A stretch of DNA of 64,000 nucleotides from Eledone cirrhosa (Eukaryota): positions 69,936,001 through 70,000,000 of the forward strand of contig OZ024741.1 in NCBI GenBank assembly GCA_964016885.1, given 5' to 3'. Below the pieces are notes generated by a model that was given only the letters and a program-made list of their open reading frames with translations, was not told where the DNA came from and searched no databases. Positions within the stretch are counted from its first letter, which is position 1; each line of letters begins with the position of its first letter. Position numbers and translations under genes: made by a program. Positions 626 through 51,905 of this stretch are shown piece by piece.

Positions 626-2159
626 TAACTATCGACTTCCCCTCCAAACACCCTAACAATAAACTACCTGTATTAGACACAGCACTCTGGATTAACACTA
701 TAGACGAGAGAGCCCATATTCTCCACTCACACTATGCTAAACCCATGGCCTCCAATTACCTGATACTCAAAAACTCAGCAATGTCCAGTAGTGCTAAGTT
801 TAATATTCTGATCGCAGATTTGGTACGAGTGATGAAGAATGTGTCCCGCATGTGCGACCCAACAGAAATGGAAAAACACATCCAACACTTCATCAACCGC
901 ATGCAGTTCTCTGGCTACAACCAAAGAGACAGAGTCAGAGTATACGAAGGAGCCATGGAAAAGTATAAGACCCTCATAGAACTGGACATGAAAGGAATTT
1001 GCCCACTATACAGGAGCAAATCATGGAATAGCTTAGATAGGGCTAGACATAAGATAGGGAAAGCCACCTCATGGTACGACAACCAGAGATACCAGAGTGT
1101 CATGTTTGTGGACGCTACCCCTGGAGGGAAATTAGCTAACCAGTGTAGAAAGGCCCTGAGAAAGACCCACTTAAAAATTAAGGTGGTAGAAAAGCCAGGA
1201 ACCACCATAAAATCCCTGATCAGCAAAACCTACCCTTTTAAGAAAACCCACTGCACCAATAGGAAATGTATCATATGTAAGGTAAACCCCCGGATAAACT
1301 GTAAAACTAGAAACGTAGTCTATAGCATAAGATGTACAGAGGGTACTTGCAGAAACATGACAACAACATACATAGGTGAGACAGCTCGTAGCATAAGTGA
1401 AAGGATAGACCAACACTGGGGGGAACTAAAAGGACGAAAAAACGGGTCAGTACTATACGAACATGCTAGACAACAACATGACGGTAACATAGACAACATA
1501 GAAATTAGAATAATATCTAAACATAGAAATGACCCAGCAGATAGGCAAATCAGAGAGGCCAGTGAAGTAGAAATTAGAAGACCAAGACTAAACAGAAAGA
1601 ATGAATGGAATAACAACAACACCCAAACAAACAACACTGACCTAAGAGAAGTATAAATAAGTAAATAAAATAAAATAAATAAATAAATAAATACATACAC
1701 AAGCACAATAACAACAAGCACATAAACACACACTAGTCACCCATCACACAGCAAACAAAACACTATACACACACGCAAACGCATGCGCAAAGAAGACAAA
1801 ATAAAATAAACAAACAAGCAAAGAAATAAATAAATATATAGACAGACTGAATAAAAATGGCGTAGACATACAATACAACAGGAGGAAAAGATAGCATAAA
1901 CTATATATATGTGTTTGTGTCTATATTGTATCTGTATTATTTTTGACCGTCGGTCAGTCAATGGCAACATTGAGGACCGAGTAAGTTAGATTACCGATAT
2001 AAAAGACACAGAAGCGAGAAGCGAAAACCAACCAAACAGTGAGTGTGTTCTGTTATTAATTCTGGCAATATTACACAAATATGACCTCCCCAAGTATAAC
2101 AATATTTGTTTCGACACACGATTTCATATAAAAAACCTCGCAAAACTAATTCATCGCCG

Positions 2160-2160
<1 letters not shown>
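625..2160 (+). mobile_element. Penelope-like element family A, 5'-truncated right arm: RT thumb, Cys linker, GIY-YIG endonuclease (open 625-1656) and 3' non-coding end
   Basis: CTNRKCIICK..C linker, VVYSIRC...YIGETARS..ER..QH and IREA.E...P.LNRK GIY-YIG motifs; ends AATTCATCGCCGC directly before (TA)n. Confidence 0.92.
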
Positions 2161-2222
<62 letters not shown>

Positions 2223-2226
2223 TATG

Positions 2227-2300
<74 letters not shown>

Positions 2301-2772
2301 CACACACACACACATATATATATATATAAACACCCACACAAATATATATATGTATATATATTTAGGACCGTGTGCACACGAGTGTATGTGTGTGTGTTTG
2401 AGCGCGGTGCAGAAAGTGGGTGAAGATATGAGAAAGTATTATGGCAAGAAAGGAAGGAAGGAAGACAGAAAGAAAGAAGGAAGGAAGGAAGGAAGGAAAG
2501 AAAGGAAGAAAAAGGAAAGCTAATAGCTGAAAAAAGAAAGACGTCGGTGTAAAATTCTTATGACAGACATGTATGAAATAATCTTCAACGTTGCAAGAGT
2601 CAACGACATCTCTGTAATAAATAGTAATTTTCAGGAACGTCGCGCAGCTCAGTAAACGCCCTTCTGATGATGGTTTCATTGAGAAAAATTACAAGTAGAA
2701 GTATCACAAGGATGAACGGTTGTTATGGTCATACTGGTGTGTGATTTATCGCCAACATTTTAGCATTTCTAC

Positions 2773-2828
<56 letters not shown>

Positions 2829-2866
2829 CCACCCCAATTCACGTTTAACCCTCCCCTCTCTCTCTC

Positions 2867-2898
<32 letters not shown>

Positions 2899-3404
2899 CG
2901 GTATATGTATAGAACGAGAGAGAAAGAGATGCAAAATCCCGACTGCGGTGCCAAGCGGTTTCAGTCTCAGCACCACTGTCTCTCGCTCTCTCTCTGTATC
3001 TATATGAGAGTCAGGACCCCGACGGCTGAGCTCTTACCGTTTCAGCAGCTAGTTCCAGACCTCAATCATATAACCATACTCTACTACTCCAAGTATCGAG
3101 TACTTTGGTGATTAATGGTCTAACCAGTTTCTAACTGAATCCATCCTGATTTATATATATATATATAGTGGCAGTGATGCTAAAATTTTGGTGATAAATC
3201 ACACACACACACGCACACACACTCATACACACGCATACACATGCACGCGCACGCACATACACACACACATATATATATATACCACGCACCACACACATAC
3301 ATTCAAATGAACTTCTGACATGGTGACCTTAGTAACCTAGAAAAAGAACTGTATATTTATATTACAGTAATTTTATTGGTTAATTTATTCATTTTCTTAC
3401 AAGT

Positions 3405-3840
3405 GGCCGAAATAGGATTCCTCTGAAGGGTCTTTGGAGTAACGTTACTTTATAGTGTGCGTAGCTCTGAGATCAGGGATTCGCTCCTGGTAGAATCGCT
3501 ACCTCTCCGAATTAAGGTATCACAGCTCTACTACAGGCATGTAGCTAGAATATCTCAGGAGAGAATCGCTGGACAGATTTTACGGGCAAAGCCAACTGGC
3601 AGGAGACCCGGAGGTAACTACAAGCAAGATGGTTGGATAACATACATAATTTCGGTTTGTCTCATTTGGGGACCCAGCCGGATCTTGTGGAGACAGTAGC
3701 TGCTGATAGGTCCCTCTGGAAGACGTGTCTGAGGACTTTACCCCTATGAGCCTCCCAAGAATAAGTGAACAACGAAGAAGAAGAAGAAGAAGAAGAAGAA
3801 GAAGAAGAAGAAGAAGAAGAAGAAGAAGAAGAAGAAGAAC
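3405..3840 (+). mobile_element. RTE-clade LINE 3' fragment with (GAA)n tail
   Basis: R.SEIRD.L.VE.L..RI...QL.Y..HVAR...ERIA.QIL.A.P.GRRP.G motif of the RTE C-terminus. Confidence 0.7.
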
Positions 3841-5761: not shown

Positions 5762-5961
5762 NNNNNNNNNNNNNNNNNNNNNNNNNNNNNNNNNNNNNNN
5801 NNNNNNNNNNNNNNNNNNNNNNNNNNNNNNNNNNNNNNNNNNNNNNNNNNNNNNNNNNNNNNNNNNNNNNNNNNNNNNNNNNNNNNNNNNNNNNNNNNNN
5901 NNNNNNNNNNNNNNNNNNNNNNNNNNNNNNNNNNNNNNNNNNNNNNNNNNNNNNNNNNNNN
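5762..5961. other. Assembly gap (200 N)
   Basis: Run of n. Confidence 1.
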
Positions 5962-6186: not shown

Positions 6187-6218
<32 letters not shown>

Positions 6219-7137
6219 AGAGTCAAGACCCCGACGGCTGAGCTGCAGCCGTTTCGATAGCTGCTCGGATCTAACGGCCGGAGCTCATCAGTCGGGTCCT
6301 TACTTTTTTCCTATTACTCACTCTACTACCGTAAGTATTGAGTACTCTGGTGCGTTATGGTCCACCTGGTCTGGTATCTTACCAAACCCTCTTTGTTTTA
6401 TATATATATATATATATATATGTTGGCTGCCAACTCGTTTTCGAGTACGGCCACTACTGTATATCCATGTAGGAGAACCCCTACCGATGCGCTGAACGAG
6501 TGTGACTTTTTAGTCCAGCCAGCGACTTGAAAACTCTGGTACAAACACTACACTTGTGACCATTATTGACACATAGTGCTGGGCCCATGGTACCATGTGA
6601 CGACAAGTGCAGGGAGATCTCCAGATATAAAGAAATGCCTGTGCCGTGAAGCTTTTATAGTGAGCAAAGGCACTGCACAAAGCCAGTCCCACTCTCTTAA
6701 CCAAGATATTTACCAAAAAGAAGAATAAGTCAACATCATTGGATACCATCAGGGTTGCAGGTGTTATATCAGAGCTTTCCTTCTCCTAGAATTCTGCCTT
6801 GACAAAGGCTAAGGGGTCATCTCTCCCGGTGATTTTGGATGGCCATTGACTCTTAAGAGCTCCTTTGCCCTTTGACAGGTTTTGTTTTTAGTCCTGCAGG
6901 ATGTCCAAAGTCACCCTCTTCACCAAGAAACCTTGGTGGGGTTGCCAGTTTAGTCGCCCACGACCCGACCATGTATATATATATGTATGTGTGTGCATGT
7001 ATATATTTCATACACTATATTTTTGTTAACGCATGCATCCACACCTGTAAGCGCAGACTAATGTAGGACAACGATTAGCCCACCTTTAATCCTTCCTGTC
7101 TCTCTTTTACCTTATTATTATTAGCCTATTGTTATCA

Positions 7138-7430
7138 GACCTGCCAACCCCTAAAAAGCCAAACGGGGAGTACCATAAAAATGTGCCCCAGAATGTGGCG
7201 AGATGAGGCAAAATAGGGAGATTTTACATAATTAATTGTTTCTACTTTAGGCACAAGGCCAGCAATTATCCCAGTGTATTACTGGTACTTTATTTTATCG
7301 ACCCCGTAAGGATGAAAGGGAGATTTTACATAATGAAAGCTATACCCATTTTCATAAGAAAAGATATCTCTCAACCACTCTAAAGTGGGTGTGAGATCTC
7401 CCCGTCCGACGAGGAGAGTTGACATGTCTG
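7138..7430. mobile_element. MITE interrupted by a SINE fragment with a 17-bp target-site duplication
   Basis: TIR-like CAGACCTGCCAAC / GTTGACATGTCTG; GGGAGATTTTACATAAT duplicated at ~7216 and ~7318 around the SINE. Confidence 0.6.
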
Positions 7431-8205
7431 TGTTATTATATATTATAATTACTATTATTATTATTATTATCACTATTATATATATATATGAGAATCCATT
7501 CTTAATCTTTTGAAATTATCCCCTCTTTCATACATCATTGCTAAAAATTACTGCTTTTTTTTTCTATTAATCTTCCCCGTCCATGAGGGAGATTTTCATA
7601 AATTGATCGTATATGACATCCAGTACACCGCTATCGATATTCTAGTATGTCTAGCGACGATGTAGAAATTCCATCGTTGGCTGGGGTGTACATAGGATAT
7701 AAAAGTTATCTAGCTACATACAGATGCTAAATCGATAAGAAAGCACAGAAAAGGCCGAAAGCAAATAATCTAAACATAAGTCAAATATCGACAGCAAAAA
7801 TAGTCTGGGAAATTTCTGAGTAATGTCACTGCAACCTTTCCTCTTGAATACAATAACTTTATTCAAAGAGGTTAAAGCAGATGTAAGACATGTTCAGCTT
7901 AAGGACTGCATGTTGTATTTGTACAGGGTGGACCATGACTTGCAATATATTTGTGAATAAAATACGTTGAACTGAAATTTCAATCTCTTTCTTAATATTC
8001 ACATACACATCTCTCTCTCCCGATTACTTAAATACATGTGTGTCCCCCCCCCCTCTATCTGTATGTTAACTGTCTTATTTTTTCCCTTCTGTTTAATTTT
8101 CTCTCTCTCCTTTTTTCCTTCACCAATAAGTTTATCCCGGGTTCAATCGGGTGTAACCACAGTAAGGTACTCAATACATAGCAGAGTATAAATATTTAAT
8201 ATATA

Positions 8206-8261
<56 letters not shown>

Positions 8262-8458
8262 GCGGTGGAAGCATTTCTGAATTGGTGGCAAATTTGGACA
8301 TAAATTGGGGGTGGGGTGGCAAATTCCCACCCCTTTCCACCGCCACTGTGTATGTATAATATAAAAAAATTATGCTATGTGCTCTTTCCTAAGAGGTTAA
8401 TAAATCGAGCATTTTCGTATTTGGTAAGAAACTGGTATAATACCCAATTTATTCGTCT

Positions 8459-8520
<62 letters not shown>

Positions 8521-9029
8521 TACACATTCATTTATTATGGCTATTGGTGAGCTTTGTTACTCTAAAGTTTCACCTGCTCACTCACAGGATCACCTGTCGT
8601 GTCTGGTGAGTACACAGTTGAGACTCCAGAGTAACAAGGCTTAGCCATAATAAATGAATATTTAAACTCTACTTCGCTATTGAGTTTTCATTCTTACGTC
8701 CGTCAATAATTCACGCACTCTGAGGTCTTGAATAATCGTCCCCACCCCCCGTTTATTAATTTGTCAGAATTTTTCCACCCCCGCAACCACTTATTAAATT
8801 GTGCTAATCTATCTCCGGCGAAATGTTATTGTAAGTGATTCATATTGAAACAACAGCTGGAGAATCTAATAATAATTTTATTTTACATTAAAAAACATTA
8901 TATATGACAAAAGAAGAACATTACAAGAAATCCCATATTTAAGAACGTACACTATACAATTACTGATTTCCTAAGCCCCTCCCCCCATTGTTGCCACCCC
9001 TCCTATTATTTGGGACCCGAGAGTGCCAC

Positions 9030-9835
9030 CAAGCTCTCCTCCTCTCTATGTCTATCACACAAAACTCTCTTTTAATCCCCCTCTCTGTATCTACTAAAAC
9101 CAAACTCTACCACTCTCTATATCTACCACGACATCGCCTCTCTATATTTAAGACTAATACACTTTCTCACTCTCTATAAATATCTACACCTCTGTATATC
9201 AATCACCCCAAATCTCACCCTCTCTATATCTACTACTCGGCATTCTCCCATTATCCCTCTCTGATATGTAAAACCACCAAATTCTTCTGCTTTCTATATC
9301 TACTACACAGAACTCTCTTCCAATCACCCTACTAAACTATACCCCTCTCTATATCTAGCATACAACACTCTCTCTCATTTCGTCTCACTCTATCTATCAC
9401 TACCAAACTTTCCCCTCTCTATCTCTATCAATCCTCTCGCTTTATTCATTACCAACAAACTCTCCCCTCCCTACATCAACCAAACAACATAATTTCCCAA
9501 TCTATATCAATTAACACCAAACTCGCCCCTCTTTATATCTACTACACGGAACTCTCTTCTAATACCCCTCTCTAAATTAATTAACCCCAAACTCTCTCTT
9601 TCTATATCAACTAATCCCAAACTCTCTCCCTTCTCTATATCTACTATATGGAACTCTTTTCCAATCCTCCTCTCTATATCAATTAACACCAAACTATTCC
9701 CCTCTCTATATCTACTACCCGGAACTCTCTTTAAATTCCTCTCTCTATATCAATAAACCTAAATCTCTCCCCCTCCCTATATCTAATATACAACACACTC
9801 TCCCAATCTTCCTCTCTATATCTATATCTATCTCT
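9030..9835 (+). repeat. Degenerate pyrimidine-rich tandem repeat
   Basis: Recurrent CTCTCTATATCTACTAC / AACTCTCT motifs. Confidence 0.7.
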
Positions 9836-10149
9836 CCATCTGTCTCTACGTAACATGTACATAAATTGCAGCACATTTACAAATAGATGCGTGTTTTGGT
9901 AGTTTTGGTAGAAAAATATAATTATAAATATATAAATATATAATATTAATATAATTATAAATATATAAATATATAAAACTTGGTAATAAACAGCAGCCTA
10001 TCAACTGTATTGCAGAATAGCTTTATAACTGGTGGAAATTATATCATTCCCATTTCACTTTTGACCCGCTGTGCCATTTCTTTTAGATCCTGTACTATAC
10101 CAGGGTGCTACCCCAGAACGCAAAAATATATCATGTAAATACAATTTAA

Positions 10150-10560
10150 TAAAAAAAGAAAACAAATTAGATTCAGAAGAAAAAATGGAATGTAAAATAA
10201 GAAAATATAAAAAAAAAACAGAAAAGGAAAGGAATGACAAGGGCTATAGTGTCACATAAGAATGGGGAAGGGGAGGAGAGGTTGATTGGGTCTGGGCCTA
10301 GAACGCAGCGGTAATGGAGCTGCGCCCCACAGACAAGACTGCAAAAACCTTCCCGCGGACAATGGCCAGCGTCACCCGCTGCAACAGCCACCCCCACCTC
10401 ACGAGGCTCCTTCTCCAGACGGACCGTCGACGTTCCGATCTTCTGGAGGAGCTCAGCAGTACGGGGTCCAAGTACGCCTGAGGTCTCGACGGCAACCGGT
10501 GCGAAGAGAACATTCTGTCAGCAGGGAGCCTGAGGCGGTAAATTAGTAGGTAGTGAAGGA
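10150..10560 (-). mobile_element. CRE-type LINE 3' fragment (relatives at ~38960-39360 and ~54270-54570)
   Basis: PVAVETSGVLGP and EPREV.WLLQRV.L.IVRG(N/K) resemble the C-terminal P.AVET.G...QR.S.AI.RGNA motifs of CRE-clade elements. Confidence 0.65.
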
Positions 10561-11191
10561 TACTCTTTTGGACGTCTCTTTCACACATCTATCCTATATA
10601 ATAAGAGCGTTGTTACTAATTAGAAGGACATCTTCATACGAATTTCGACTCATTCTGATCAAAAGCAAATCTCTTCACTCCATCTCCACCATTAAGCAGC
10701 AGATGCACGAATATATATAATAGACGTGACACACCGATGACATAGAAATACTGAACAAGACACTAACAGAAAGCTGGAAATACCGGGGAATAATTATGGG
10801 TTTTGATTTAACCCTTGTCATACTATACCACATGTAAACGGCCCTGATTCTATGATAAAATACTGTTTGTTTTAAAGTGTTATATCTATATTATAATTCT
10901 GCTTGTTCGTTCGTTCGAGCGTTACGCTTTAGATAGTTAGAGATAGGGGGTGGGTGAAGTAAGTGAGTAGGAAGGTGGGGAAAGAGAAAGAGCGAAATGT
11001 AGTGAGAAAGAGAGAGAGAGGGGTGAAAGAGTGAGGAGTGGTGAGTGAGAGAGAGGAACAGGTAGAGACAGAGATGCGTTCGATAAAATTGAGAGAAAGA
11101 GAGAGAGGTGTAGAAGCAAAACAGTGGGAATGAGAGGGTAAACTGAAGAGGGCAAATGTCTTCTTTACACACTCTTTAACTGTCCATTTTC

Positions 11192-11286
<95 letters not shown>

Positions 11287-11320
11287 AAATAAGACGCTTA
11301 CATTAGTCCATCCCTATTTA

Positions 11321-11390
11321 TTTTATTATACGTATTTCGAAGATATATGGCTTTTGTATAACATCAGTCAACAATTCTCTTCAGATCAAA
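11321..11390 (-). ncRNA. Minimal type I hammerhead ribozyme in a ~155-bp TA-flanked insert
   Basis: UUUGAU-CUGAAGA-GAA..UUC-GAAA-U(ACGU)A-UA^AUAAAA. Confidence 0.75.
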
Positions 11391-11460
11391 TCCACAAGAG
11401 ATGTAAATATCAGTTGATATGCAAGCGGTCACACGTTTATATATATATATATATATATAA

Positions 11461-12200
11461 ACTACCCGTCCTTTGGACGGTTCAAGTAGCTTTCGATGTA
11501 GCTCATTAAACTAAACAAAGTAACTTTGAATACATAGAAGAAAAACGTACTTTATGTAAACATGAAAACCTTAGGCACTATTCCAGCGAAATAATTAATA
11601 TGTGAGCTCGGTGTCATCCGTTATACCATGTAACAACAGAAATCCAGTCTAGGTATAAATTTTTTTGACAACAGTAAAAGCGCATCATGAAATAGAGAAG
11701 TGAAGTGAATAATAGACACTATTATGTACAAAGCATAATATTGTAAAAGTTATGACATCACTTAATGTATGAACATCAAGCTTGAAACGATAAATTATAC
11801 AATGTCAAATCTATAACTTAACTTAGTAATCTGTTAGAAATTGCTCGTTGTGAAATATACAAAATGATATTGTTAGTCTCAAGGAAGCGTACCTTTGTTT
11901 CAAGTACAAAGAATAAATTAAAATCCGAATGAGCCGAATTACGTAAGATAACTCTTGTCTTACTTAAAGTCTTACTAATAACGAAAATTGACACAAATAA
12001 CCGAAACTTTTTTAATGTCTCCAAAGGCCCCAATATCGATTTTTGAAAGCCTTTGTAGATCATGTACAGGTTTTGTGCAAGGAGAAGCTCTGTAAAAAAT
12101 TTCAAAGAAATCGCATGAATGGTTTACAATATATGAGCCCTCATTAAAAATTGTCCACACATACACACAAACATACAGAAAACTTCGTCTTTATATATAT
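11461..12200 (-). mobile_element. Non-autonomous Helitron-like element
   Basis: 5' TATATAAAG..GTGTGTATG start and 3' hairpin CCGTCC-AAA-GGACGG followed by GTAG. Confidence 0.55.
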
Positions 12201-12206
12201 ACAGAT

Positions 12207-12348
<142 letters not shown>

Positions 12349-13059
12349 CATTTAGTACAGCATCATCGAACCTCTGGTTGCAGCCAAGCTAACGAATGCA
12401 GTCGGGGTGTGCAGCTAAGCACTCAATAAGGTATATTACATTAGAGTTATAACATTACGTTTAGACAGCTTTGCAAGTTGAAGACAGCGACCGATAGACG
12501 AGCCGTAGTGACCAAAGCGACGAAAAAAACTGAACTCAGGATAAAATATGACAAACCTGGACCATCGCGTCGATACCATACATAACACATAATATATAAT
12601 ATATATCACATATAATATATAATATCTCCGCTAGGTTTCTGTAAATCCGAAATCAACAAAATCCACTTGCAGGGGCCTGCAAGTTATTGGTTTTTGGAAG
12701 GTAGAACAGTGGAATTTACTTCGTCAACAAGTTTTCGTTCTAATCCGCCCGGTTGTGAATAATAGCAGTAAACATTGGTAGTAGGCACATGGTTTTCCCG
12801 AAGGGACCTAACCCCCGGTATGAACAAATTGGAGAGTTAAAGAGTGAGTAAAATCTGTGCTGCTCACACACACACAGAGAGAGGACTATTTGCATCAAGG
12901 GATAGATGGCCATCAAGCTGAAAATATGGCACTTGGTTACATTAATATATTGATTGAAAATAGTATCAACTGCACAAGACTGGGCGGTCCTAGCTCAACC
13001 CATTGAGATACTTGAGCCTGAGCTCCAAGTTGACATCAACCACCCTGATACTGATTCTC

Positions 13060-14802
13060 TTACTGAAGAGCAATGAGTGATTGCTGATACTGTAATTGAT
13101 GTCGTTTAACAAAGGTGAAAACCTGAAAGACCTGCACATACCTGCTTCTACGCAGATGCAGCTGGATGTTATGGCAAAACATACTTTTTCAATACATTGA
13201 TTTCTCATCTCCAGATGAATAACTATCATGTGTGTTGCGGTACTTGGACCGACGTTGTGTCTACAGTGCTGCTGGGACGTAGAACTATGCACAGTTTATT
13301 TAAACTACCTGTTCGACTAACAGAGACCAGTGTGTGTAATGTGTCTGACCCATCTGAATTACGAAACCTGGATCTCATAATACTTGACCAAGCTTCTATG
13401 ATTCCTTTTTATACAATTCATGCCATTGGCAAGTGTCAAGGAAATGTTTAGAAGAAAGGTTTTACTTTTGGGAGGTTTTGACTACATGTAAGTACTGCCA
13501 ATATTACCAAGAAGTACTCGTGAAGCCACCTTAGAAATATACCTTAAAAACTTCCATCTGCAGCATATCTTTCAACATTTTATATTAAACAGTAATATCA
13601 GAGTAAGAGAAGATCAGAGAGAGTTTGCGAAGTGGCTACTATATCTTGGCAATGGAACAACACCTCCAACTGAAGAACTGAATATGAATGAAGATGATGA
13701 TGAAATGACTCCATTTTCGTCTGTAAGTGACTCTTTAGTGAAACAAACGTTCAGCAATGCAACGCAACAAGAGAAAAGAACGCAAGTAATTTTATCTCCC
13801 TAAAATGCTGGTTGCCTATTAATCAATGAAGAGATTCTCCGACAACTACTCGGTAATAGCCATATCTATTACAGTACAGATAGAGTGATCGCTGATGACC
13901 CTACGGATTATGCAATGGCACAAGATTATACGTAGTGGGATTGCCTCAACATTCCATCGAAGCTTCTCATAAAATTGGTCCTTTGATAGGTAGCGTGTTT
14001 TGATCCCAAGGCTGAAGTTAGCCTCCAGTGATCCCAACATCCTTTTTACTTTGTAAAGAGCCCAGTTTCCAGTAAGGCACTCGTATGCGCTGACATACAA
14101 CAATATCCAGGGTTAAACATACGATAAAGTATGTCTGTTCCTTCCTGAGCAAGTATTTAGCCATGTCACTTTTTCGAATATGCATACAGTCAGATGTAAA
14201 AATTAAAGTATTGAACACTGATAAGCAAAGGCGGCGAGGTAATAAAACTGCGACAAAGAACATCCTATACAAAAAGATATTAAGATAAATCTGAGCCCAG
14301 TTAAAGAGTTGCAAGCTGCAATAGAACTGAAACTAATCACGTACATATAAATATTGTGTATATTCTCTATATCGTTTTGTGTAAATTAATTGTGTATAAT
14401 GTAAAATAATTATGATAAAATATTGTGTAATAAGACATATGCAATTATTGGGTCGTTAAGTATGAAATTTTTAGAAAAAAAGAAATTTCTACAAATTTCA
14501 TACTTGACGACCCAATATATATTTATCATGCAGCTTCAATAAAAATAAATGCTAACGAATGATATATATATTAAGTATTGTAATAATAATAAATTTGAAG
14601 ACTAAAATCCAAAGCAGCGATTCTTTGCTTAAACTTTAATCTGTTATTTTAATAAATATTAAGTATTGTATATATTTTGTATCATTTATTGCACAGGCAA
14701 CAATAAGATTTATATGCAATAAAAATACAAATCATTCTTTCTTTCTTAAATAGTTCCTCTTATTTTTTTTCGCTCCGTGGAATTTCGACGGGTTCCGTTA
14801 GT
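13060..14802 (+). pseudogene. Degenerate Helitron PIF1 helicase and Helitron 3' end
   Basis: AAGCYGKTYFFNTL, TVLLGRRTMHSLFKLP, LIILDQASM, LLLGGFD, FAKWLLYLGNG, RAQFPVR..ALT motifs with stops and frameshifts; terminal hairpin CCGT..ACGG then TTAG at 14775-14802. Confidence 0.75.
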
Positions 14803-19070: not shown

Positions 19071-20031
19071 ATCTCCGCTATCAACATTACAACCAATATC
19101 ATCATCACCATTACCACCACCACCACCACCACCACTATAACGAACAATATCATCATCAACATCACTGTCACTTCATCGATACCATCGCCCCCCCCCCCAC
19201 TACCACCACCACCACTATAACTAACAATACCATCATCACCATCACTGCCACATCACTTTCTGTGTGTGTATGTATATATTTCTATTGGCAGTAAGTCCAA
19301 CACGGCGTATTTTCATAATTGTTTCTACTTTAGGCACAAGGCCAGCAAATACCCAGTACATTACTGGTACTTTATTTTATCAACCCCATAAGAACGAAAG
19401 GCAAAGTTAACCTCGGTGGGATTTGAACTCAGACTGTAAAGGGACGTAACTATATAATAGGAGTGTATATGAAAGCATATACAAGACATTTATGTATAAT
19501 AACCATATATAAATCTGGCCATGGGTGTTTAAAACTGTGATCATGTCACAGCTACACCAGCTTTCGTGTGAAGAGCAGGCACCAGTGTCTCGGGATATTT
19601 TGTTCATCATATTCCTATTTCTAGCTTAAGACCGTAATTGTTAAAAAAAGAAATCTAGAATTCGTCACTAAGTGGATAAAATTTAGAATTAAAAAATCAG
19701 AAATAGACTAACAGTTTCTACATGCTTTTCTATGAATCAAGCGACGATCTGGTAACTTAAAACCCTAGCCAGTTCACAAGCAGCAACGCCAATTGGAATA
19801 ACTACCTCCCGCACGTATAAGAACTGCTACTTGAGAAATTCCGACATATGCTTACTGGTCGGTGAATTAAATAACACGTATGGCCAGGAATATATCAATG
19901 GAACTTTACATCTCTTTTGGATATTTGTCTGAAGAGAACACATAGGGCAGTTGTTATACAACTACCTTACGTCTTTGAAATACGTATAACATAATAAATA
20001 GGGATGTACGAACGTAACCTTCTTTCTTGTT

Positions 20032-20082
<51 letters not shown>

Positions 20083-20084
<2 letters not shown>

Positions 20085-20927
20085 TATAACTGAATATAAA
20101 AGAAAAACGAAGACAGACATATACATATATGTGTTCAAATCGTAAGGGACCTGATTCGCTAAGGTGAAAAGAATACTAACTATAGACATTGGGATTGCTT
20201 GTCTCAATTTAAGAAAAAATTAAGAAAATAAATACAAACCGGAATTGTGGTAACTACCAATCACCCAGACAACTTGGTGTTGTTTCGCAATATTAATTGT
20301 GAATAGAAATACCAATTCAAGCTCATCAGTGGGTGATGAATTAGTATCCTAGACACTTCTAAGTATATTAAGAAACTAAATAGTGTGCTATATAAAACAG
20401 CGCACATGGCAACCTAGCGCGTCTCACAAGCTTACACCACTAAAAATAGCAGCCAGGTTTATTCGACATTTGAAATAGCTCAACAAATTAACGGAGCCGA
20501 ATATATCAAAGGTATATATTGAGTTAGGAACTCAAAATAGTCTCTTACAACAAAATAGCTCTAAGAAGGAGATATTTCCGAGCCGTATATTATAATAGAA
20601 TATAAAAGAAAAACGAACACAGATATATACATTTGGTAATTCTATTCACAATTAATATTGCGAAACAACACCAAGTTGTCTGGGTGATTGGTAGTTACCA
20701 CAATTCCGGTTTGTATTTATTTTCTTAATTTTTTCTTAAATTGAGACAAGCAAACCCAATGTCTATAGTTAGTATTCTTTTCACCTTAGCGAATCAGGTC
20801 CCTTACGATTTGAACACATATATGTATATGTCTGTCTTCGTTTTTCTTTTATATTCTATTATAATATACGGCTCGGAAATATCTCTTTCTTAGAGCTATT
20901 TTGAGTTCCTAACTCAATATATACCTT

Positions 20928-20932
<5 letters not shown>
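20083..20932. mobile_element. Palindromic HHR element, family D
   Basis: 20093-20316 is inverted at 20633-20856; the tail 20857-20930 is also present inverted at 20500-20598; TA flanks. Confidence 0.85.
20260..20337 (-). ncRNA. Type I hammerhead ribozyme (family D)
   Basis: AUCACCCA-CUGAUGA-GC..stem II..GC-GAAA-CAAC(ACCAA)GUUG-UC^UGGGUGAU: 8-bp helix I, canonical core, GUC site. Confidence 0.9.
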
Positions 20933-20974
<42 letters not shown>

Positions 20975-21191
20975 AAAGGTAAACAAAAATAACAACACAA
21001 TCGGTACAGTATGTGGAAGGAATATATCAGGTTAACGATTGAAATAGCCACTCCATCATCAGAAGAAAGAATGAGAAATTAGAAAGATTGAACTGACGGG
21101 TGGGGCGGAAGCGGAATCGGAAAAAAATGTTTTTAGAGAAAAATAACAGGTCCATTCATATTGCCATCTCTTATATATATTACACACACAG

Positions 21192-21650: not shown

Positions 21651-22180
21651 TATATAGTTGTTATATAGTAAGGTGTATTATTGGTTGTGTCATACGGTCC
21701 AATAAACTTTTGTTAGCAATATTAAGTTCTCCACGCTTTTGTATATCTCCAATTCCATTTATGGGAACAGCTAGATGATGTAAAACGGAGTATTTGTATC
21801 AAAAGGAAGATCCGAAGGCATGGTATAAATTTCCAATCATTTTAATCACGACACATGTTTCAATAAGAGATAGATCGATTGTGTAGCCATGATCGATTAT
21901 CACTGATCTCGTCAGGTGAAAATGAATTATCTTCAAATCCTTGATATGAGGGAGAAAATTTAACGATGTTCACTCACTAGAGTTTTGTCCCCCATACTCT
22001 AGTGAGTGAACATCGTTAAATTTTCTCCCTCATATCAAGGATTTGAAGACAATTCATTTTCACCTGACGAGATCAGTGATAATCGATCATGGCCGCACGA
22101 TCGATCTATCTCTTATTGAAACATGTGTCGTGATTAAAATGATTGGAAATTTATACCATGCCTTCGGATCTTTTTGATAT
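21648..22180. mobile_element. Palindromic HHR element, family E
   Basis: Arms ~21797-21983 and ~21996-22180; extra tail on the left; TA flanks. Confidence 0.85.
22060..22133 (+). ncRNA. Hammerhead ribozyme (family E), mirror copy at 21846-21919 (-)
   Basis: UCAC-CUGACGA-long stem II-GAAA-C(AUGU)G-UC^GUGA. Confidence 0.8.
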
Positions 22181-22744: not shown

Positions 22745-23396
22745 TATATATATGTATGTATGTATGTATATATATATATGTATACATATGTCAGGTCACC
22801 AGTTGGTGCTACTGGTAACATGTATCCCAGTACAACCTGTCTCATGGTCGGGTCCTTGGCGACTAAACTGGCAACTCCACCAAGGTTTCTTGGTGAGGAA
22901 GGTGACTTTGGACATCCTGCAGGACTAAAACCAAAACCTGTCAAAGGGAAAAGGAGCTCTTAAGAGTCAATGGCCATCCAAAATCACCGGGAGAGATGAC
23001 CCCTTAGCCTTTGTCAAGGCAGAATTCTAGGAGAAGGAACACTCTGATATAACACCTGCAACTCTGATGGTATCCAATGATGTTGACTTGTTCTTCTTTT
23101 TGGTAAATATCATCTTGGTTAAGAGAGTGGGACTGGCTTTGTGCAGTGCCTTTGCTCACTATAAAAGCTTCACGGCACAGGCATTGCTTTATAACTGGAG
23201 ATCTCTGCACTTGTCGTCACATGGTACCATGGGCCCAGCACTATGTGTCAATAATTGTCACAAGTGTAGTGTTTGTACCAGAGTTTTCAAGTCGCTGGCT
23301 GGACTAAAAAGTCACACTTGTTTAGCGCATCGGTAGAAGTTCTCCTACATGGATATACAGTAGTGGCCGTACTCGAAAACGAGTTGGCAGCCACCA

Positions 23397-25286
<1,890 letters not shown>

Positions 25287-25679: not shown

Positions 25680-25715
<36 letters not shown>

Positions 25716-25894
25716 GATGAGATTCTACAGGACTAGAACTGTTTCATTCTTTAGAAATCATCAGGAATGATGATTTCTAAAGAATGAAACAGTTCTAGTC
25801 CTGTAGAATCTCATCTATATTAAAACTTTTATACTCTGCTATGTATTGAGTACCTTATATACTGTGGTTACCTCCTATTCAACCCGGAATAACT

Positions 25895-25954: not shown

Positions 25955-28583
25955 ATATTTGGGGAGGGTCATATTTGCGTAATATTGCCAGAATTAATAA
26001 CAGAACACACTCACTGTTTGGTTGGTTTTCGCTTCTCGCTGTCTTTTATATATATATATCTGCGATCTAACTTACTCGGTCCTCAATGTTGCCATTGACT
26101 GACCGGCGGTCAAAAATAATGCAGATACAATATAGACAAACACATATATATATAGTTTACATAAATCTTTCGTTGCACATCTGCAACATCGTCAGTGGTG
26201 TTATATTCATTGTTCCTCCTGTTGTGTTGTATGTCTACGCCATTTTTTTTTTTGTTCAGTCTGTCTATATATTTATTTATTTATTTGCTTGTCTGTTTAT
26301 CTTATTTTATTTTGTCTTCTTTGCGCATGCGTTTGCGTGTGTGTATAGTGTTATGTGTGATGTGTGACTAGTGTGTATAGTGTTGTGTCTGCTGGGTGAC
26401 TAGTGTGTGTTTATGTGCTTGTGTATGTATTTATTTATCTTATTTTATTTAATTTAATTTACTTATTTATTTATACTTCTCTTAGGTCAGTGTTGTTTGT
26501 TTGGGTGTTGTTGTTGTTCCACTCATTCTTTCTGTTTAGCTTTGGTCTTCTAATTTCTATTTCACTGGCCTCTCTGATTTGCCTATCTGCTGGGTCATTC
26601 CTATGTTTAGATATTATTCTAATTTCTATGTTGTCTATGTTACCGTCATGATGTTGTCTAGCATGTTCGTATAGTACTGACCCGTTTTTTCGTCCTTTTA
26701 GTTCCCCCCAGTGTTGGTCTATCCTTTCACCTATGCTACGAGCTGTCTCACCTATGTATGTTGTTGTCGTGTTTCTGCAAGTACCCTCTGTACATCTTAT
26801 GCTATAGACTACGTTTCTAGTTTTACAGTTTATCCGGGGGTTCACCTTACATATGATACATTTCCTATTGGTACAGTGGGTTTTCTTAAAAGGGTAGGTT
26901 TTGCTGATCAGGGATTTTATGGTGGTTCCTGGCTTTTCTACCACCTTTATTTTTAAGTGGGTCTTTCTCAGGGCCTTTCTACACTGGTTAGCTAATTTCC
27001 CTCCAGGGGTGGCGTCCACAAACATGACACTCTGATATCTCTGGTTGTCGTACCATGATGTGGCCTTCCCTATCTTATGTCTAGCCCTATCTAAGCTATT
27101 CCATGATTTGCTCCTGTATAGTGGGCAAATTCCTTTCATGTCCAGTTCTATGAGGGTCTTATACTTTTCCATGGCTCCTTCGTATACTCTGACTCTGTCT
27201 CTTTGGTTGTAGCCAGAGAACTGCATGCGGTTGATGAAGTGTTGGATGTGTCCTTCCATTTCTGTTGGGTCGCACATGCTGGACACATTCTTCATCACTC
27301 GTACCAAATCTGCGATCAGAATATTAAACTTAGCACTACTGGACATTGCTGAGTTTTTGAGTATCAGGTATTTGGAGGCCATGGGTTTAGCATAGTGTGA
27401 GTGGAGAATTTGGGCTCTCTCGTCTATAGTGTTAATCCAGAGTTCTGTGTCTAATACAGGTAGTCTATTGTTAGGGTGTTTGGAAGGGAAGTCTATAGTT
27501 ACAGTTATACTCTGGTGTATGGAATTAGCTATCTGCTGGATGCTTTCCATCGTGCTACGTTCTAAATCAAACTTGTTAGTGCTCTCTAGTGGGGGTGTTC
27601 TTATAACTATATTGATATCGTCTACATAACGAGAGTACATGATGAGGTCTATGGAGCTTTCATTAAGGAGATCTTTAAGTCTCCTTTCCCACCATACCAT
27701 GAAAAGGTTGGCAACATCGCCAGCTATGCTGACGCCGATGGCTGCTCCCTCATTTTGGGTGTAGATTTTCTCATTGAACTTAAATATGTGGCCCTTTAGG
27801 GTAGTTTTGATACTAGCCCCTATTGCATGTGCGACCATTTTTCTTACCTGATCAGTGTTTTGGGGGGTCCGTATAGCTTTGGTCCACCCAATCCACCTTC
27901 CTATGGGAGTCTTTTTAGCCATTGAGGTTATGGTGGGAGGTCTACCTCTTATAGGTCTACTAGGGCAGAAACATCTAAGGTCATGGCTGTCTAGGTAGTC
28001 AGTGTCGTAGGTAAGTCTAAGTAGGAGGCCCAGTTCGTCTGTGTCGACGTCGCAGAACTCCACCTCACTCTCAATGATCATCTCCACACATCTTTTCACA
28101 GCAAAATCAATGTTAATGGATGGGTACAGTGACACCACATCCATACTGCCTATTATGCAGTTGGATAGGTTCCTGTTTTTGTTGCACTCACTGATTCTGC
28201 TGAGGAGGTCCTCTGTACTGTCACATACATCTGGGGACATCTTGATTATGGGGCGTATAACCATTGAGAGGAAGTAGGAGATCCTGTAGTTGCTAGCTAT
28301 ATTAGCTCCGCATACAGGTCTTGTTGGTGGTCCTGTTGTCGGGTCGTCGACTGTCTTGTGGTCTTTGCGGAGCCCATACAAGGGTGGTATGCCATTGTTA
28401 GACGCCTGGAAGTTGTTGGCAGTGCGTCTGCTTGGCTTTAGGATGTCAGTCCACATCATCATGTGAGCGTTGAGGATTTTTTCTCTCCCATCGTGTGTTA
28501 GTTGTGCAACTTCGCTCGTGTTGGTGATGTGGGGTTGCATTGCCTCGATGTAGTTCGGCATGCTATGTACTAATTCATCGCCG

Positions 28584-28584
<1 letters not shown>
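25950..28584 (-). mobile_element. Penelope-like element family A, 5'-truncated copy with inverted 16-nt 3' tip at its 5' junction
   Basis: Same sequence family as 625-2160, flanked by (TA)n on both sides; 28569-28584 equals 2145-2160 in the opposite orientation to the ORF. Confidence 0.93.
26471..28568 (-). CDS. PLE reverse transcriptase plus GIY-YIG endonuclease, uninterrupted but lacking its N-terminus
   Basis: LYGLRKDHK, RPVCG, SMDVVSLYPSI, Q..GAAIG, RYVDD, LPVLD, then the GIY-YIG domain. The first ~30 aa of the track ORF are flank, TA repeat and the inverted tip. Confidence 0.9.
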
Positions 28585-28627
<43 letters not shown>

Positions 28628-28798
28628 GTGGTTGACGGCTGAGAAAAAGAAGTACACAATCCTGAAGTAAAGTTTTAATATTCATTCTAAGTCTTTTTAC
28701 TCTGAAGTTTTGTCTGTTTATCACACGGCACTGTGATAAACAGATGAAGCTCCAGAGTAACGAGACTCACTATTTAGCCTTAATAAGATGAATATCTA

Positions 28799-29184: not shown

Positions 29185-29249
29185 CATGGAACTCTTTTAA
29201 CCATCTTTTGTTCTTATATATTATATATATATATGTATATGTATATGTA

Positions 29250-29647
29250 TATATTGAAAGGATAACAAGGACGATTGGTTACTCCTTCATTACATTTATT
29301 GGTAGGTGACGCGCGTTTCGCCACTGATCAGCTCAAGGTTCGATCTGTATCGATCTTGCCCGACTAAATAATCGGCAGCTCGACGGACCCTTTAAAATGG
29401 TATAAAGGGTCCGTCGAGCTGCCGATTATTGAGTCGAGTAAGATCGATACAGATCGAACCTTGAGCTGATCAGTGGCGAAACGCGCGTCACCTACCAATA
29501 AATGTAATGAAGGAGTAACCAATCGTCCTTGTTATCCTTTCAATATATTACACTCTGTATAGCTCTACACCTCAACACAGAAGTGAACCTAAACATCGAG
29601 TGCTCACCCGGGTGAACCTGCAGTAACTCCAAGTTACACTCCCTACA
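29250..29647. mobile_element. Palindromic element, family F, with HHR 3' half (GAAACGCGCGTC)
   Basis: Arms ~29250-29394 and ~29403-29548, AATAAA after the predicted cleavage site, tail on the right; no intact CUGANGA found. Confidence 0.75.
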
Positions 29648-30606
29648 TATATATATATATGTATATATATATAGTAATTGTTTCTACTTTAGGCACAAGG
29701 CCAGCAATTACCCAGTGCATTACTGGTACTTTATTTTATCGACCCCGTATGTATATATATATAGTAATAATAATCAATTTGAAGACTAAAATCCAAGGAG
29801 AGCTCGATAAGGATAAATATATATCAAATATATAAGAACCGTAAATATATATCAAATATATAAGAACCGTAGAGCAAATATTTATTAAAATAACATTAAA
29901 GTTTAAGCAAAGAATCGCTAGTTCTTTGATTAAACTTTAATCTGCTATTTTAATAAATATATATATATTTGAAACAAAGGAATAAATGACTTCACTTGTA
30001 ATTCTAAACAATTTGATTTAATTTTATAATATTATGATTTGGTAGAAAGTTCTCCAGGAAAGTTAACCAGGAATCTTTAAAAATCTTCCCACCGAAGTTA
30101 ACAAAGAACTCACTTGATCTACAAAACCAAATTGTAAAATTATGATATTATAAAATTAAATTCCGCCGCGGTTGACTTTGCCTTTCATCCTTACGGGGTC
30201 GATAAAATAAAGTACCAGTAATGCACTGTGTAATTGCTGGCCTTGTGCCTAACGTAGAAATAATTATAAAATTAAATCAAATTGTTTAGAACTACAAGTG
30301 AAGTAATTCTTTTCCTTTTTTCAAATATACCTAAGTGTACCAAGGATCTCACACATATAGCTAAGCATATTTTACTTCCATTTTTCCAATTTACTTCAAT
30401 ATTTCAGTAAGCGACACATTAACATCTGTGTTGAAACGTTAAAACGGAATAGATCCCTGACTGAAAAACGTATATGTGTTTATATATATATATATATATA
30501 TATAGGAACGAGTAGGAACCCGACGGCTGAGCTCAAGCCGTTTCGACGGCTAATTCTGGACTTTGGTGCGTTATGGTCCACCTGGTTCCTTACCACATTT
30601 CCTTCG

Positions 30607-30884
<278 letters not shown>

Positions 30885-31859: not shown

Positions 31860-32469
31860 TGTCAGGTCACCAGTTGGTGCTACTGGTAACATGTATTCCA
31901 GTACAACCTGTCCCATGGTCGGGTCGTTGGCGACTAAACTGGCAACCCCACCAAGGTTTCTTGGTGAGGAGGGTGACTTTGGACATCCTGCAGGACTAAA
32001 AACAAAACCTGTCAAAAGGCAAAGGAGCTCTTAAGAGTCAATGGCCATCCAAAATCACCGGGAGAGATGACCCCTTAGCCTTTGTCAAGGCAGAATTCTA
32101 GGAGAAGGAAAACTCTGATATAACACCTGCAACCCTGATGGTATCCAATGATGTTGACTTGTTCTTCTTTTTGGTAAATATCATCTTGGTTAAGAGAGTG
32201 GGACTGGCTTTGTGCAGTGCCTTTGCTCACTATAAAAGCTTCACGGCACAGGCATTGCTTTATATCTGGAGATCTCTCTGCATTTCTCGTCACATGGTAC
32301 CATGGGCCCAGCACTATGTGTCAATAATTGTCACAAGTGTAGTGTTTGTACCAGAGCTTTCAAGTCGCTGGCTGGACTAAAAAGTCACACTCGTTCAGCG
32401 CATCAGTAGGGGTTCTCCTACATGGATATAAAGTAGTGGCCGTACTCGAAAACGAGTTGGCAGCCACCA
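31860..32469 (+). mobile_element. ~610-bp RTE-derived non-autonomous element (copies 22789-23396 +, 46721-47330 +, 6421-6972 -, diverged ~21275-21590 -)
   Basis: Near-identical copies; RTE-like 5' UTR motif CTAGGAGAAGGAAAACTCTG joined to a C-terminal C2H2 remnant ([15 protein letters not shown]) and a terminal CTCG-AAAA-CGAG hairpin. Confidence 0.75.
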
Positions 32470-32511
32470 TATATGTATGTATATATATGTATATATATAT
32501 ATCTCTCTATA

Positions 32512-36892: not shown

Positions 36893-38764
36893 ATGTCCGG
36901 TTTGTTCATTTGTATGAATTCACTAAAATGAACAAACAAGCTTTCATCCATCCTTTTAATAACTCGACACGGGCTTACACATTTCTGCCCAGAAACAACC
37001 ATTCTAAATCACTTACATGTAATAGGGAAGGTGCCAAAGCTGGAAAAACGGGTGCAGCACAATCTGACTCACTTACATGCAATAGGGAAGGTGCCAAAGC
37101 TGGAAAAACGGGTGCAGCACAATCTGACTCACTTACATGCAATAGGGAAGGTGCCAAAGCTGGAAAAACGGGTGCAGCACAATCTGACTCACTTACATGC
37201 AATAGGGAAGGTGCCAAAGCTGGAAAAACGGGTGCAGCACAATCTGACTCACTTACATGCAATAGGGAAGGTGCCAAAGCTGGAAAAACGGGTGCAGCAC
37301 AATCTGACTCACTTACATGCAATAGGGAAGGTGCCAAAGCTGGAAAAACGGGTGCAGCACAATCTGACTCACTTACATGCAATAGGGAAGGTGCCAAAGC
37401 TGGAAAAACGGGTGCAGCACAATCTGACTCACTTACATGCAATAGGGAAGGTGCCAAAGCTGGAAAAACGGGTGCAGCACAATCTGACTCACTTACATGC
37501 AATAGGGAAGGTGCCAAAGCTGGAAAAACAGGTGCAGCACAATCTGACTCACTTACATGCAATAGGGAAGGTGCCAAAGCTGGAAAAACGGGTGCAGCAC
37601 AATCTGACTCACTTACATGCAATAGGGAAGGTGCCAAAGCTGGAAAAACGGGTGCAGCACAATCTGACTCACTTACATGCAATAGGGAAGGTGCCAAAGC
37701 TGGAAAAACGGGTGCAGCACAATCTGACTCACTTACATGCAATAGGGAAGGTGCCAAAGCTGGAAAAACGGGTGCAGCACAATCTGACTCACTTACATGC
37801 AATAGGGAAGGTGCCAAAGCTGGAAAAACGGGTGCAGCACAATCTGACTCACTTACATGCAATAGGGAAGGTGCCAAAGCTGGAAAAACGGGTGCAGCAC
37901 AATCTGACTCACTTACATGCAATAGGGAAGGTGCCAAAGCTGGAAAAACGGGTGCAGCACAATCTGACTCACTTACATGCAATAGGGAAGGTGCCAAAGC
38001 TGGAAAAACGGGTGCAGCACAATCTGACTCACTTACATGCAATAGGGAAGGTGCCAAAGCTGGAAAAACGGGTGCAGCACAATCTGACTCACTTACATGC
38101 AATAGGGAAGGTGCCAAAGCTGGAAAAACGGGTGCAGCACAATCTGACTGACTGTAATTGGGAATGTCGAGCGACAATTGCCACTTCTCTGCTCTCCTAC
38201 GATTGCACAAGCAGCTGGTGATGAAAAATGGAGCTTACACATTAACGTTAAGTGGATTGATAAAGAGAATGCAACACAACGGCAAGCAAAGGCGCACCCC
38301 CACCCCCCGCAAGGCCCTACGTAGCGTCTGGTGGGACTGGAAAGGTTTCATCCACTACGAGCTGCCCTCACCGAACACCAGCATAACTTCTGATATCTAT
38401 TGCCAATAACTGGAAAGATCAGCAGCGAAAGTCACACAGATGCGCCCACCCCATGGTCTTGATCCATTCTTTCATGATAAGGATCGGCCGCATACATCAA
38501 AGATGACCCTTTGAAAAGCTGGTGGAACTAGTTTGGGAGATCCTGCCCCACCCACCCTAATCACCAGACGACCTCACACCTACAGACTATCACCTTTTTA
38601 TCTCAATGAGCAATGTAATGCAAACAAAGACCTTTGCCAATGAATAGCAGTTAAATCAGTGGCTGACGGAATTCTTTGCATCGAAGAGATGGAATCATGT
38701 GCCTACCTAAACGATGGCAGACGGTAATCGCAAAGTCAATAAGAAATTTCTGCCCAACCTAATA
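36893..38764 (+). pseudogene. Mariner (DD34D) transposase relic with 3' TIR
   Basis: HLH.IGKV.KL.KRVQHNLT (WVPHEL linker equivalent), GDEKW, VWWDWKG..YE, HD..RPH, HPP*SPD..PTDYHLF; TIR-like end TTTCTGCCCAACCTAATA. Confidence 0.85.
37009..38149 (+). repeat. 19 x 60-bp tandem repeat inside the mariner relic
   Basis: Units identical except at 37020 and 37530. Confidence 0.97.
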
Positions 38765-39402: not shown

Positions 39403-39439
<37 letters not shown>

Positions 39440-39519
39440 CAAATGAATTGTGGTAAGGAACCAGATGGACCATAACGCACCAGAGTACTCAATACTTAGG
39501 GTAGTAGAGTGGGAAATAG

Positions 39520-40003
39520 GAAAAATAAATAAATAAATATATACACAAGCACAATAACAACAAACACATAAAAACACACACTAATAAACTAAGATAGAAT
39601 ACAATAACGAAAACACAGTAACCCAAACGCGAACACACACCAAACACTATACACACACGCAAATGCATGCGCAGAGAAGAAGACAAAAATAAATAAATAA
39701 ATAAATAGATAAAATAAAAATGGCGTAGATATACATACAATACAACAGGAGGAACATAATAGTACCACTAATGATGTTGCAGATGTGCAACAAAAGAACT
39801 TTGTTAGACTATATATATATGTGTTTATATCTATATTATATCTGTATTTTTGACCGTCGGTCAGTCAATGGTAAACATTGAGGACCAAATGAATTAACTG
39901 TGGAGATATAAAAGATACAGAAGCGAAAACTAACCAAACAGTGAGTGTGTTCTGTTATTATTTCTGGCAATATTATTACAACAATATGACCCTCCCCAAG
40001 TAT

Positions 40004-40010
<7 letters not shown>
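39520..40010 (+). mobile_element. PLE family A 3' non-coding end only
   Basis: Aligns by eye with 1680-2104 and ends at the same point as the copy ending at 25950. Confidence 0.85.
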
Positions 40011-40067
<57 letters not shown>

Positions 40068-46539: not shown

Positions 46540-47328
46540 GGAAAAAATGAAACGAAATTAATTCGGGATGTTTGTTTACAAACACACCGAGCATTATAAT
46601 AAATGTTCTGTAAATCCATACGTTCATATATATATGTGTGCATGTATGTATATATACACATACTACTGTACGTCTCTATACATATATGTATGTACGTATA
46701 CATACTTATATATATATATTATGTCAGGTCACCAGTTGGTGCTACTGGTAACATGTATTCCAGTACAACCTGTCCCATGGTCGGGTCGTTGGCGACTAAA
46801 CTGGCAACCCCACCAAGGTTTCTTGGTGAGGAGGGTGACTTTGGACATCCTGCAGGACTAAAAACAAAACCTGTCAAAAGGCAAAGGAGCTCTTAAGAGT
46901 CAATGGCCATCCAAAATCACCGGGAGAGATGACCCCTTAGCCTTTGTCAAGGCAGAATTCTAGGAGAAGGAAAACTCTGATATAACACCTGCAACCCTGA
47001 TGGTATCCAATGATGTTGGCTTGTTCTTCTTTTTGGTAAATATCATCTTGGTTAAGAGAGTGGGACTGGCTTTGTGCAGTGCCTTTGCTCACTATAAAAG
47101 CTTCACGGCACAGGCATTGCTTTGTATCTGGAGATCTCTCTGCATTTGTCGTCACATGGTACCATGGGCCCAGCACTATGTGTCAATAATTGTCACAAGT
47201 GTAGTGTTTGTACCAGAGCTTTCAAGTCGCTGGCTGGACTAAAAAGTCACACTCTTTCAGCGCATCAGTAGGGGTTCTCCTACATGGATATAAAGTAGTG
47301 GCCGTACTCGAAAACGAGTTGGCAGCCA

Positions 47329-47359
<31 letters not shown>

Positions 47360-48889: not shown

Positions 48890-48937
48890 AAATATGCTCG
48901 TGTGTATGTGTGTGATTGTATATATATATATATATAT

Positions 48938-49197: not shown

Positions 49198-49222
49198 TAT
49201 ATATAATGTATATATAAGTATA

Positions 49223-51897: not shown

Positions 51898-51905
<8 letters not shown>
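51450..51905. mobile_element. Palindromic HHR element, family G
   Basis: Near-perfect ~185-bp arms centred at ~51720; tail on the left. Confidence 0.88.
51795..51858 (+). ncRNA. Hammerhead ribozyme (family G), mirror copy at 51584-51647 (-)
   Basis: AUUUUAU-CUGAUGA-AAG..CUU-GAAA-U(AUGU)A-UA^AUGAAAU. Confidence 0.8.

Follow-up and report, generated by a model that had tools for sequence, protein, structure and literature searches.

A 506-nt hammerhead repeat copied into TA microsatellites in a Penelope-like pattern, most likely a new retrozyme family in Eledone cirrhosa

The window analyzed is a stretch of 64,000 nt of the Eledone cirrhosa genome (assembly GCA_964016885.1, contig OZ024741.1, positions 69,936,001 to 70,000,000, forward strand). 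The element under study is a head-to-head insertion at 20080-20935 inside a (TA)n run, and its parts are as follows.

20035..20082: left target, (CA)n then (TA)n.
20080..20632, minus strand: left arm, 553 nt or 1.09 units; its 3′ end is the short start site in (TA)n and its 5′ end the inversion junction.
20080..20126, minus strand: repeated 47-bp segment, first pass, with minority letters at 20112 and 20118 in common with the right arm.
20127..20632, minus strand: one 506-nt period, 33.6% GC, no ORF.
20253..20345, minus strand: type I hammerhead, cut after 20268 (GUC).
Stem I of the hammerhead: 8 bp, 20337-20330 with 20267-20260, and a further 4-bp extension beyond an internal loop.
Core and stem II: core 20329-20323; stem II 20322-20321 with 20287-20288; GAAA 20286-20283.
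Stem III: 5 bp, 20283-20279 with 20269-20273.
20330..20500, minus strand: spacer from the long start site to the hammerhead, the position of the ORF in a coding Penelope-like element (PLE).
20501..20585, minus strand: 85-nt "tail" between the short and long start sites.
20586..20632, minus strand: repeated 47-bp segment, second pass, with family-majority letters at 20618 and 20624.
20633..20935, plus strand: right (inverted) arm, 303 nt, from hammerhead stem II past the cut site to the long start site in (TA)n.
20633..20688, plus strand: within the right arm, the hammerhead's 3′ half, which lacks the CUGAUGA core and cannot fold alone.
20930..20971: right target, (TA)21.

The first-pass annotation had reported a 20-mer recurring with a period of about 505 bp and a minus-strand hammerhead between its copies. 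The recurrence on the plus strand (20092 and 20598) and the placement of the hammerhead were both confirmed, with the period corrected to 506; the annotated stretch, 20083..20632, proved to be only the left arm of the larger inverted insertion. A third copy of the 20-mer lies on the minus strand at 20837. The 20-mer sits in a 47-bp repeat (20080-20126 and 20586-20632; 91.5% identity, E 1e-12), past which the right arm runs 67 nt further, equal to 85 nt on the unit owing to an 18-nt deletion between 8-nt direct repeats. The inversion junction is clean (20632/20633), and the outward-facing 3′ ends of both arms grade into (TA)n. These two ends lie 85 nt apart on the unit, the short one at ~20080 (equivalent to 20586) and the long one at 20935 (equivalent to 20501). 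Having a single whole hammerhead, this locus is unable to release a monomer.

Misassembly or a one-off local duplication could account for the 47-bp repeat and the mirror arm, since the window is a gapped, microsatellite-rich scaffold (N run at 5762-5961) and the inversion joint of the locus itself (20632/20315) was absent among the joints listed from the sequencing runs described below. Mismatches between the two arms occur at 4 of 236 and 3 of 114 letters, besides the 18-nt deletion, indicating that they are not mirror copies made by the assembly, and the same adjacencies were found in other copies and runs. We consider such a local artefact highly improbable.

The non-coding nature of the unit, as first annotated, was upheld: read as a circle in six frames, its longest stop-free stretch was 54 codons, or 48 from an ATG. 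All core letters of the hammerhead are present in the locus copy. When the window was block-shuffled 100 times, a strict descriptor (stem I of at least 8 bp, stem III of at least 5 bp) found no match in any shuffle and a loose descriptor matched in 2. The predicted ribozyme fold (-17.4 kcal/mol) lies 4.9 kcal/mol above the minimum-energy fold (-22.3). Rfam gave no match over the whole window at the gathering score, and the 17 weak matches obtained for 19900-21100 at a weak threshold included no hammerhead. The 506-nt unit folded as a circle had a predicted energy of -115.1 kcal/mol with 66% of letters paired (z -3.55), and none of 60 shuffles was as stable. Read variants were tried as support for this circle fold outside the ribozyme and rejected (38 variants: 14 kept pairing, 11 broke it, 13 were unpaired), because the predicted circle fold misplaces the hammerhead.

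Four (X1, X4, X5 and X7) of nine available sequencing runs, none of which is recorded as RNA, were aligned to the element at 85% likeness. Because the records do not give the library kind of X1 or X4, neither was used to judge expression; X7 is a DNA (RAD) run. Matching pieces amounted to 3133 contigs in X1, 64 in X4, 8 in X5 and 2643 of 12,467,656 reads in X7, mostly 90-99% alike. The X7 read share gave a rough copy number of ~1,100-3,500 under an assumed genome of 2-3 Gb and with the biased sampling of RAD, suggesting a family of roughly a thousand copies or more. Of the 103 changes in X4, 37 were A>G or T>C, against 41 of the 138 in the DNA run X7, giving no sign of editing. The eight X5 pieces (records 17-24) carry another organism label, are of low depth and 90-99% alike, and include one across 20501; they may come from a related species or from carry-over. 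Three long X4 contigs, records 9, 10 and 13, had depths of 537, 177 and 345 and represent diverged subfamilies, and the long pieces of X1 had depths of only 6-13. Outside these runs, a metagenome scan returned no match to the long-end pattern and two to the hammerhead pattern, both in a bacterial-looking coding region with the likeness ending by 22 letters, and all 10 matches of a viral scan were the bare 17 letters.

Loose (TA)n letters preceded position 20501 in 34 X1 contigs, 3 X4 contigs and 250 X7 reads, indicating that the long site is the main 3′ end of the family. The short end was seen outside the locus in only 2 X4 contigs, which end in TA-rich letters at 20591. The 20-mer marks this minor end. 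Summed X1 depth, which was not taken as copy number, fell from ~205,000 near 20501 to 7,000-14,000 over the hammerhead, a decay toward the 5′ side as predicted for 5′ truncation. A strand change occurred at 9 of the 15 joints listed. Joints that go back 505-511 nt were rejected as proof of tandem copies, because a single 3′-end fragment such as the right arm already holds that joint. Among the 24 pieces listed, none crossed the whole stretch or carried two hammerheads; beyond these lists lay a further 3245 pieces, 332 loose ends, 132 variants and 10 joints. The annotation of a retrozyme-like, non-coding hammerhead unit is supported, and the unit fits non-LTR retrozymes in hammerhead type, size, GC and lack of an ORF.

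Variation among copies was then read at the hammerhead. The locus copy had been called perfect, which does not hold for stem II: it has 2 bp here versus 4 bp in the family majority, whose letters at 20319-20320 account for ~4040 of 6583 of the depth in X1 and 48 of 53 in X4. None of the 40 variants listed fell on a core position. In stem III, positions 20272 and 20280 changed jointly from A-U to G-C, both letters being carried, as judged from depth sums, by an X4 contig of depth 48, and copies with other loop III sequences (loose ends at 20275 and 20260) retained the stem. This covariation argues that the ribozyme is under selection, and by these sequence comparisons the hammerhead appears conserved in the family. 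One X4 contig (record 9) had an apparent GUU cut triplet and a longer loop III, as read from a loose end.

The order of parts was followed through diverged copies. Record 11 of X4 covers 20200-20529, and thus the whole spacer, gap-free with 34 differences (10% divergence). Records 13 and 15 bridge 20501 with at least 31 letters to either side, another four do so with 26-28, and record 9 (486 nt) joins 20629 to 20125 with the same parts. Logan contigs may be mosaics of copies. The 506-bp order of parts is common to these diverged copies.

These data bear on a reading in which the abundant ends derive from a coding PLE, with the 506-nt period left behind when a deletion removed the ORF between 20500 and 20330; it would then be a gutted pseudo-LTR and not a self-propagating family. 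The ends exceed the spacer 10- to 20-fold in summed X1 depth, which dips to 1,300 at 20387-20405; X1 record 7 has 250 unaligned letters past 20405; and retrozymes resemble PLE pseudo-LTRs according to bioRxiv 10.64898/2026.07.22.740005. An excess of ends is, however, expected from 5′ truncation, and the 10%-diverged copy covers the entire spacer without a gap, while records 8, 9 and 12 cross the dip. Raw-read depth was 114-176 at the dip and 86-288 over 20330-20500, the variants at the dip came from 11-13 read starts, and the loose ends there look, by eye, like this same sequence in its majority-letter form with a few letters added; those at 20411 and 20421 run on as the same sequence. The hammerhead also differs from the minimal PLE type, as detailed below. 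The first-pass annotation had itself named a unit that is merely the pseudo-LTR of a longer coding PLE as the outcome that would overturn it, and the part order kept in diverged copies speaks against this. We regard the gutted pseudo-LTR, and with it a coding parent that has the same ends, as quite unlikely.

The template was examined from the two passes of the left arm. The first pass and the right arm have G at 20112 and C at 20118, whereas at the matching sites of the second pass stand C and T, the letters of the family majority (98% and 58% of X1 depth). If a single circle had been copied 1.09 times, the passes would be expected to agree, so their differences disfavor a single monomer circle. 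A template of more than one unit is supported; the suggestion that it might have been one circular monomer fares less well, the passes differing at two sites. The simplest reading is a template of non-identical units, be it a tandem transcript left uncut, a multi-unit circle, or two RNAs with a jump from one to the other at the long site. The allele pattern could also have come about afterward, if conversion took place between the palindrome arms.

A 506-nt circular RNA, cut and ligated by the hammerhead and copied for 1.09 turns, would require that the passes came to differ only afterward, through mutation and through conversion between the palindrome arms. In its favor, each arm runs across the cut site, the predicted circular fold is stable (z -3.55), a stem III of 5 bp is fitting for a monomer-competent ribozyme, in contrast to the PLE minimal hammerheads of PMC4209133, and circle templates have been proposed in PMC7229834 and PMC4209133. 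Three records seemingly start at 20504-20506, beside the long site, with an ambiguous direction for two of the joints; such starts are expected if a cDNA stalls at the other primer on a circle, but AT microhomology with the target also yields them. Nor is a circle required to cross the cut site: for PAc, an anole PLE, uncut RNA was the main substrate in vitro (PMC11167929), so that crossing is no proof of circularity. Against a monomer circle stands the family-majority letter at both differing sites of the second pass; a rough estimate by hand puts the probability of chance back-mutation at both at ~1 in 10,000, and conversion would therefore be needed. We hold this reading to be unlikely. Junction reads and divergent-primer products would not, we infer, be diagnostic of a circle, because ligation at GUC restores the genomic sequence and uncut tandem transcripts give the same products.

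A wider role for circles is entertained as a tentative and rather doubtful idea, in which the family would replicate via circular RNAs, both monomers and multi-unit forms, with PLE protein priming at two internal sites. A cDNA would stall where the other began, leaving unit-length copies with 5′ ends piled at the long site, and occasional run-through would leave copies like that at 20080-20935. If true, the dispersed copies would be the genomic footprint, in thousands of insertions, of circle-templated target-primed reverse transcription, an untested step of the retrozyme life cycle.

Penelope-like machinery is present in the same window. A coding PLE ORF at 26471-28585, with a second copy at 1-2160, gave a weak reverse transcriptase (RT) match and has a GIY-YIG-like end. 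A CX4CxxC linker before this end, read by eye as in Neptune/Nematis, suggests a Neptune-type element. Among named proteins, its closest relative comes from Octopus vulgaris (68%), and tblastn of its protein over the window matched only at 1-1653 and 26474-28681. The element has short and long ends in (TA)n, like the hammerhead unit. Comparison of the unit with this PLE by blastn gave nothing beyond chance-level words, the PLE copies in the window being all truncated. Both copies (26471-28620, minus strand, and 1-2160) are 5′-truncated with ~700 open codons, and the element is a candidate mobilizer; in one copy a short piece of the long end is repeated in inverted orientation, and the other copy has a head-to-head arrangement centered on 625/626. 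A word of 11 letters immediately 5′ of the hammerhead (20335-20345, minus strand) recurs at the end of the Neptune-type tail (~2144-2154, plus strand), by eye, and may be a chance match.

Among the other palindromes of the window, five of six have one end flush with (TA)n and the other extended by 80-161 nt, extensions that were only partly checked as element sequence. Five head-to-head palindromes of different families, each with one flush end and one extension of 80-161 nt that exceeds the published tail of 30-40 bp, lie at 21807-22172, 25711-25820, 29246-29552, 51555-51905 and 59579-60581, at (TA)n and most with hammerhead-like cores. A second hammerhead family (6215-6400, 30500-30610, 48919-49216 and 39438-39524) has a long stem III, a whole core at 6291 (minus strand), and two ends that lie ~20 nt (short) and ~120 nt (long) beyond the cut site. 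At 39438-40011, an inverted tail of this second family is fused head-to-head to a diverged Neptune-type PLE 3′ region, with both ends in (TA)n. This chimera suggests that two different RNAs were integrated in one event.

The marks of PLE insertion described in PMC8557442 are an inverted 5′-truncated copy, a partial tandem, a tail and a (TA)n bias, and such marks are also described in PMC3846280. In PMC11167929, the tail corresponds to the gap that separates a pair of internal start sites, and extension takes place on both strands of the target. On this basis, the half-kilobase repeat copied into TA microsatellites in the PLE pattern is most likely a new "retrozyme" family, and we favor as the likely explanation a non-autonomous 506-nt hammerhead retroelement family, non-LTR retrozyme-like and moved in trans by PLE RT/GIY-YIG endonuclease. 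A source with more than one unit would be transcribed, and a PLE-type endonuclease would cut both strands of a (TA)n run, the target in which the insertion is seen. Reverse transcription would be primed by each end at an internal position of the RNA, the long site (20501) in one case and the short site 85 nt upstream in the other; both ends are observed, and the priming step is modeled on that of PMC11167929. Both cDNAs would then stop to give the head-to-head joint that is observed, one of them having apparently run 1.09 units, past the hammerhead and into a second, slightly different unit. Judging from its conservation, the hammerhead probably serves to split tandem transcripts into monomers that may circularize.

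Animal non-LTR retrozymes have units of 51-972 bp according to Li, Clavereau and Pollet 2026 (bioRxiv 10.64898/2026.07.22.740005) and of 170-400 nt in invertebrates according to Cervera and de la Pena 2020 (PMC7229834), so that 506 nt lies inside the range of the preprint and above that for invertebrates. The family resembles them in being short, AT-rich, non-coding and, by prediction, self-paired, with one canonical type I hammerhead, in occurring as solo and more-than-unit copies, and in coexisting with PLEs. It differs in being seen mainly as dispersed, 5′-truncated, inverted copies in (TA)n. By the rule of the preprint, two consecutive hammerhead units, the locus is a solo, inactive copy.

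With insertions of endonuclease-bearing PLEs (Penelope/Poseidon, Neptune and Naiad; PMC8557442, PMC3846280 and PMC11167929) the element shares 5′ truncation, a partial tandem, an adjacent inverted 5′-truncated copy, a tail on one arm, a microsatellite target without a readable target-site duplication, and a hammerhead upstream of the ends. It differs in having no ORF and in its tail of 85 nt versus the 30-40 bp described; the combination tested for in an autonomous PLE, an RT plus GIY-YIG ORF between pseudo-LTRs, is absent from the unit. Its ends fall on AT-rich words matching the target, whereas PAc (PMC11167929) starts at sites lacking homology to the cut DNA. The minimal hammerheads of PLE pseudo-LTRs share the type I topology and the core, and most copies are likewise single and tied to truncated elements, but PMC4209133 describes them with a short stem I and a stem III that is absent or a 1-2-bp palindrome, whereas the unit has an 8-bp stem I and a 5-bp, non-palindromic, covarying stem III. 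MRC1 and other non-autonomous Chlamys PLEs are also non-coding and acquire pseudo-LTRs and head-to-tail insertions via PLE proteins (PMC8557442). Canonical hammerheads are, as a rule, missing from Chlamys elements, and the likeness of these elements to their partners lies at the 3′ end; the unit gave no significant blastn match to the truncated PLE copies of the window. No published octopus family of this sort was found, and the supplements of PMC7229834 or of the retrozyme preprint might list one.

Mobilization of animal retrozymes by PLEs has been proposed from co-occurrence, shared hammerhead motifs and trees, and not from insertion anatomy, in the available text of PMC7229834 and bioRxiv 10.64898/2026.07.22.740005. 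The present family unites a canonical retrozyme-type hammerhead unit with the full PLE insertion signature and provides independent anatomical support. Both the retrozyme class and its link to PLEs are already published, so the family extends the proposal and does not overturn it. Its thousand-plus copies permit a cheap computational test of a linear tandem versus a circular template.

Other features were recorded in the window. Adjoining the insertion on the left, a neighbor at 19892-20034 (plus strand) has a minimal hammerhead-like motif with a palindromic stem III and ends in the insertion's own microsatellite; a second copy lies at 11280-11420 (minus strand, 77%). A PIF1-like helicase fragment at 13122-13451 (plus strand; PF05970, E 2e-12) is perhaps a Helitron remnant. 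A 60-bp minisatellite spans 37009-38153 with 19 copies (99%) and open frames on both strands, and a SINE-like repeat of ~190 bp occurs in many copies, for example at 42380-42572. A young dispersed repeat of ~575 bp is present in four copies (95-97%), at 6399-6973, 22843-23418, 31914-32488 and 46776-47353.
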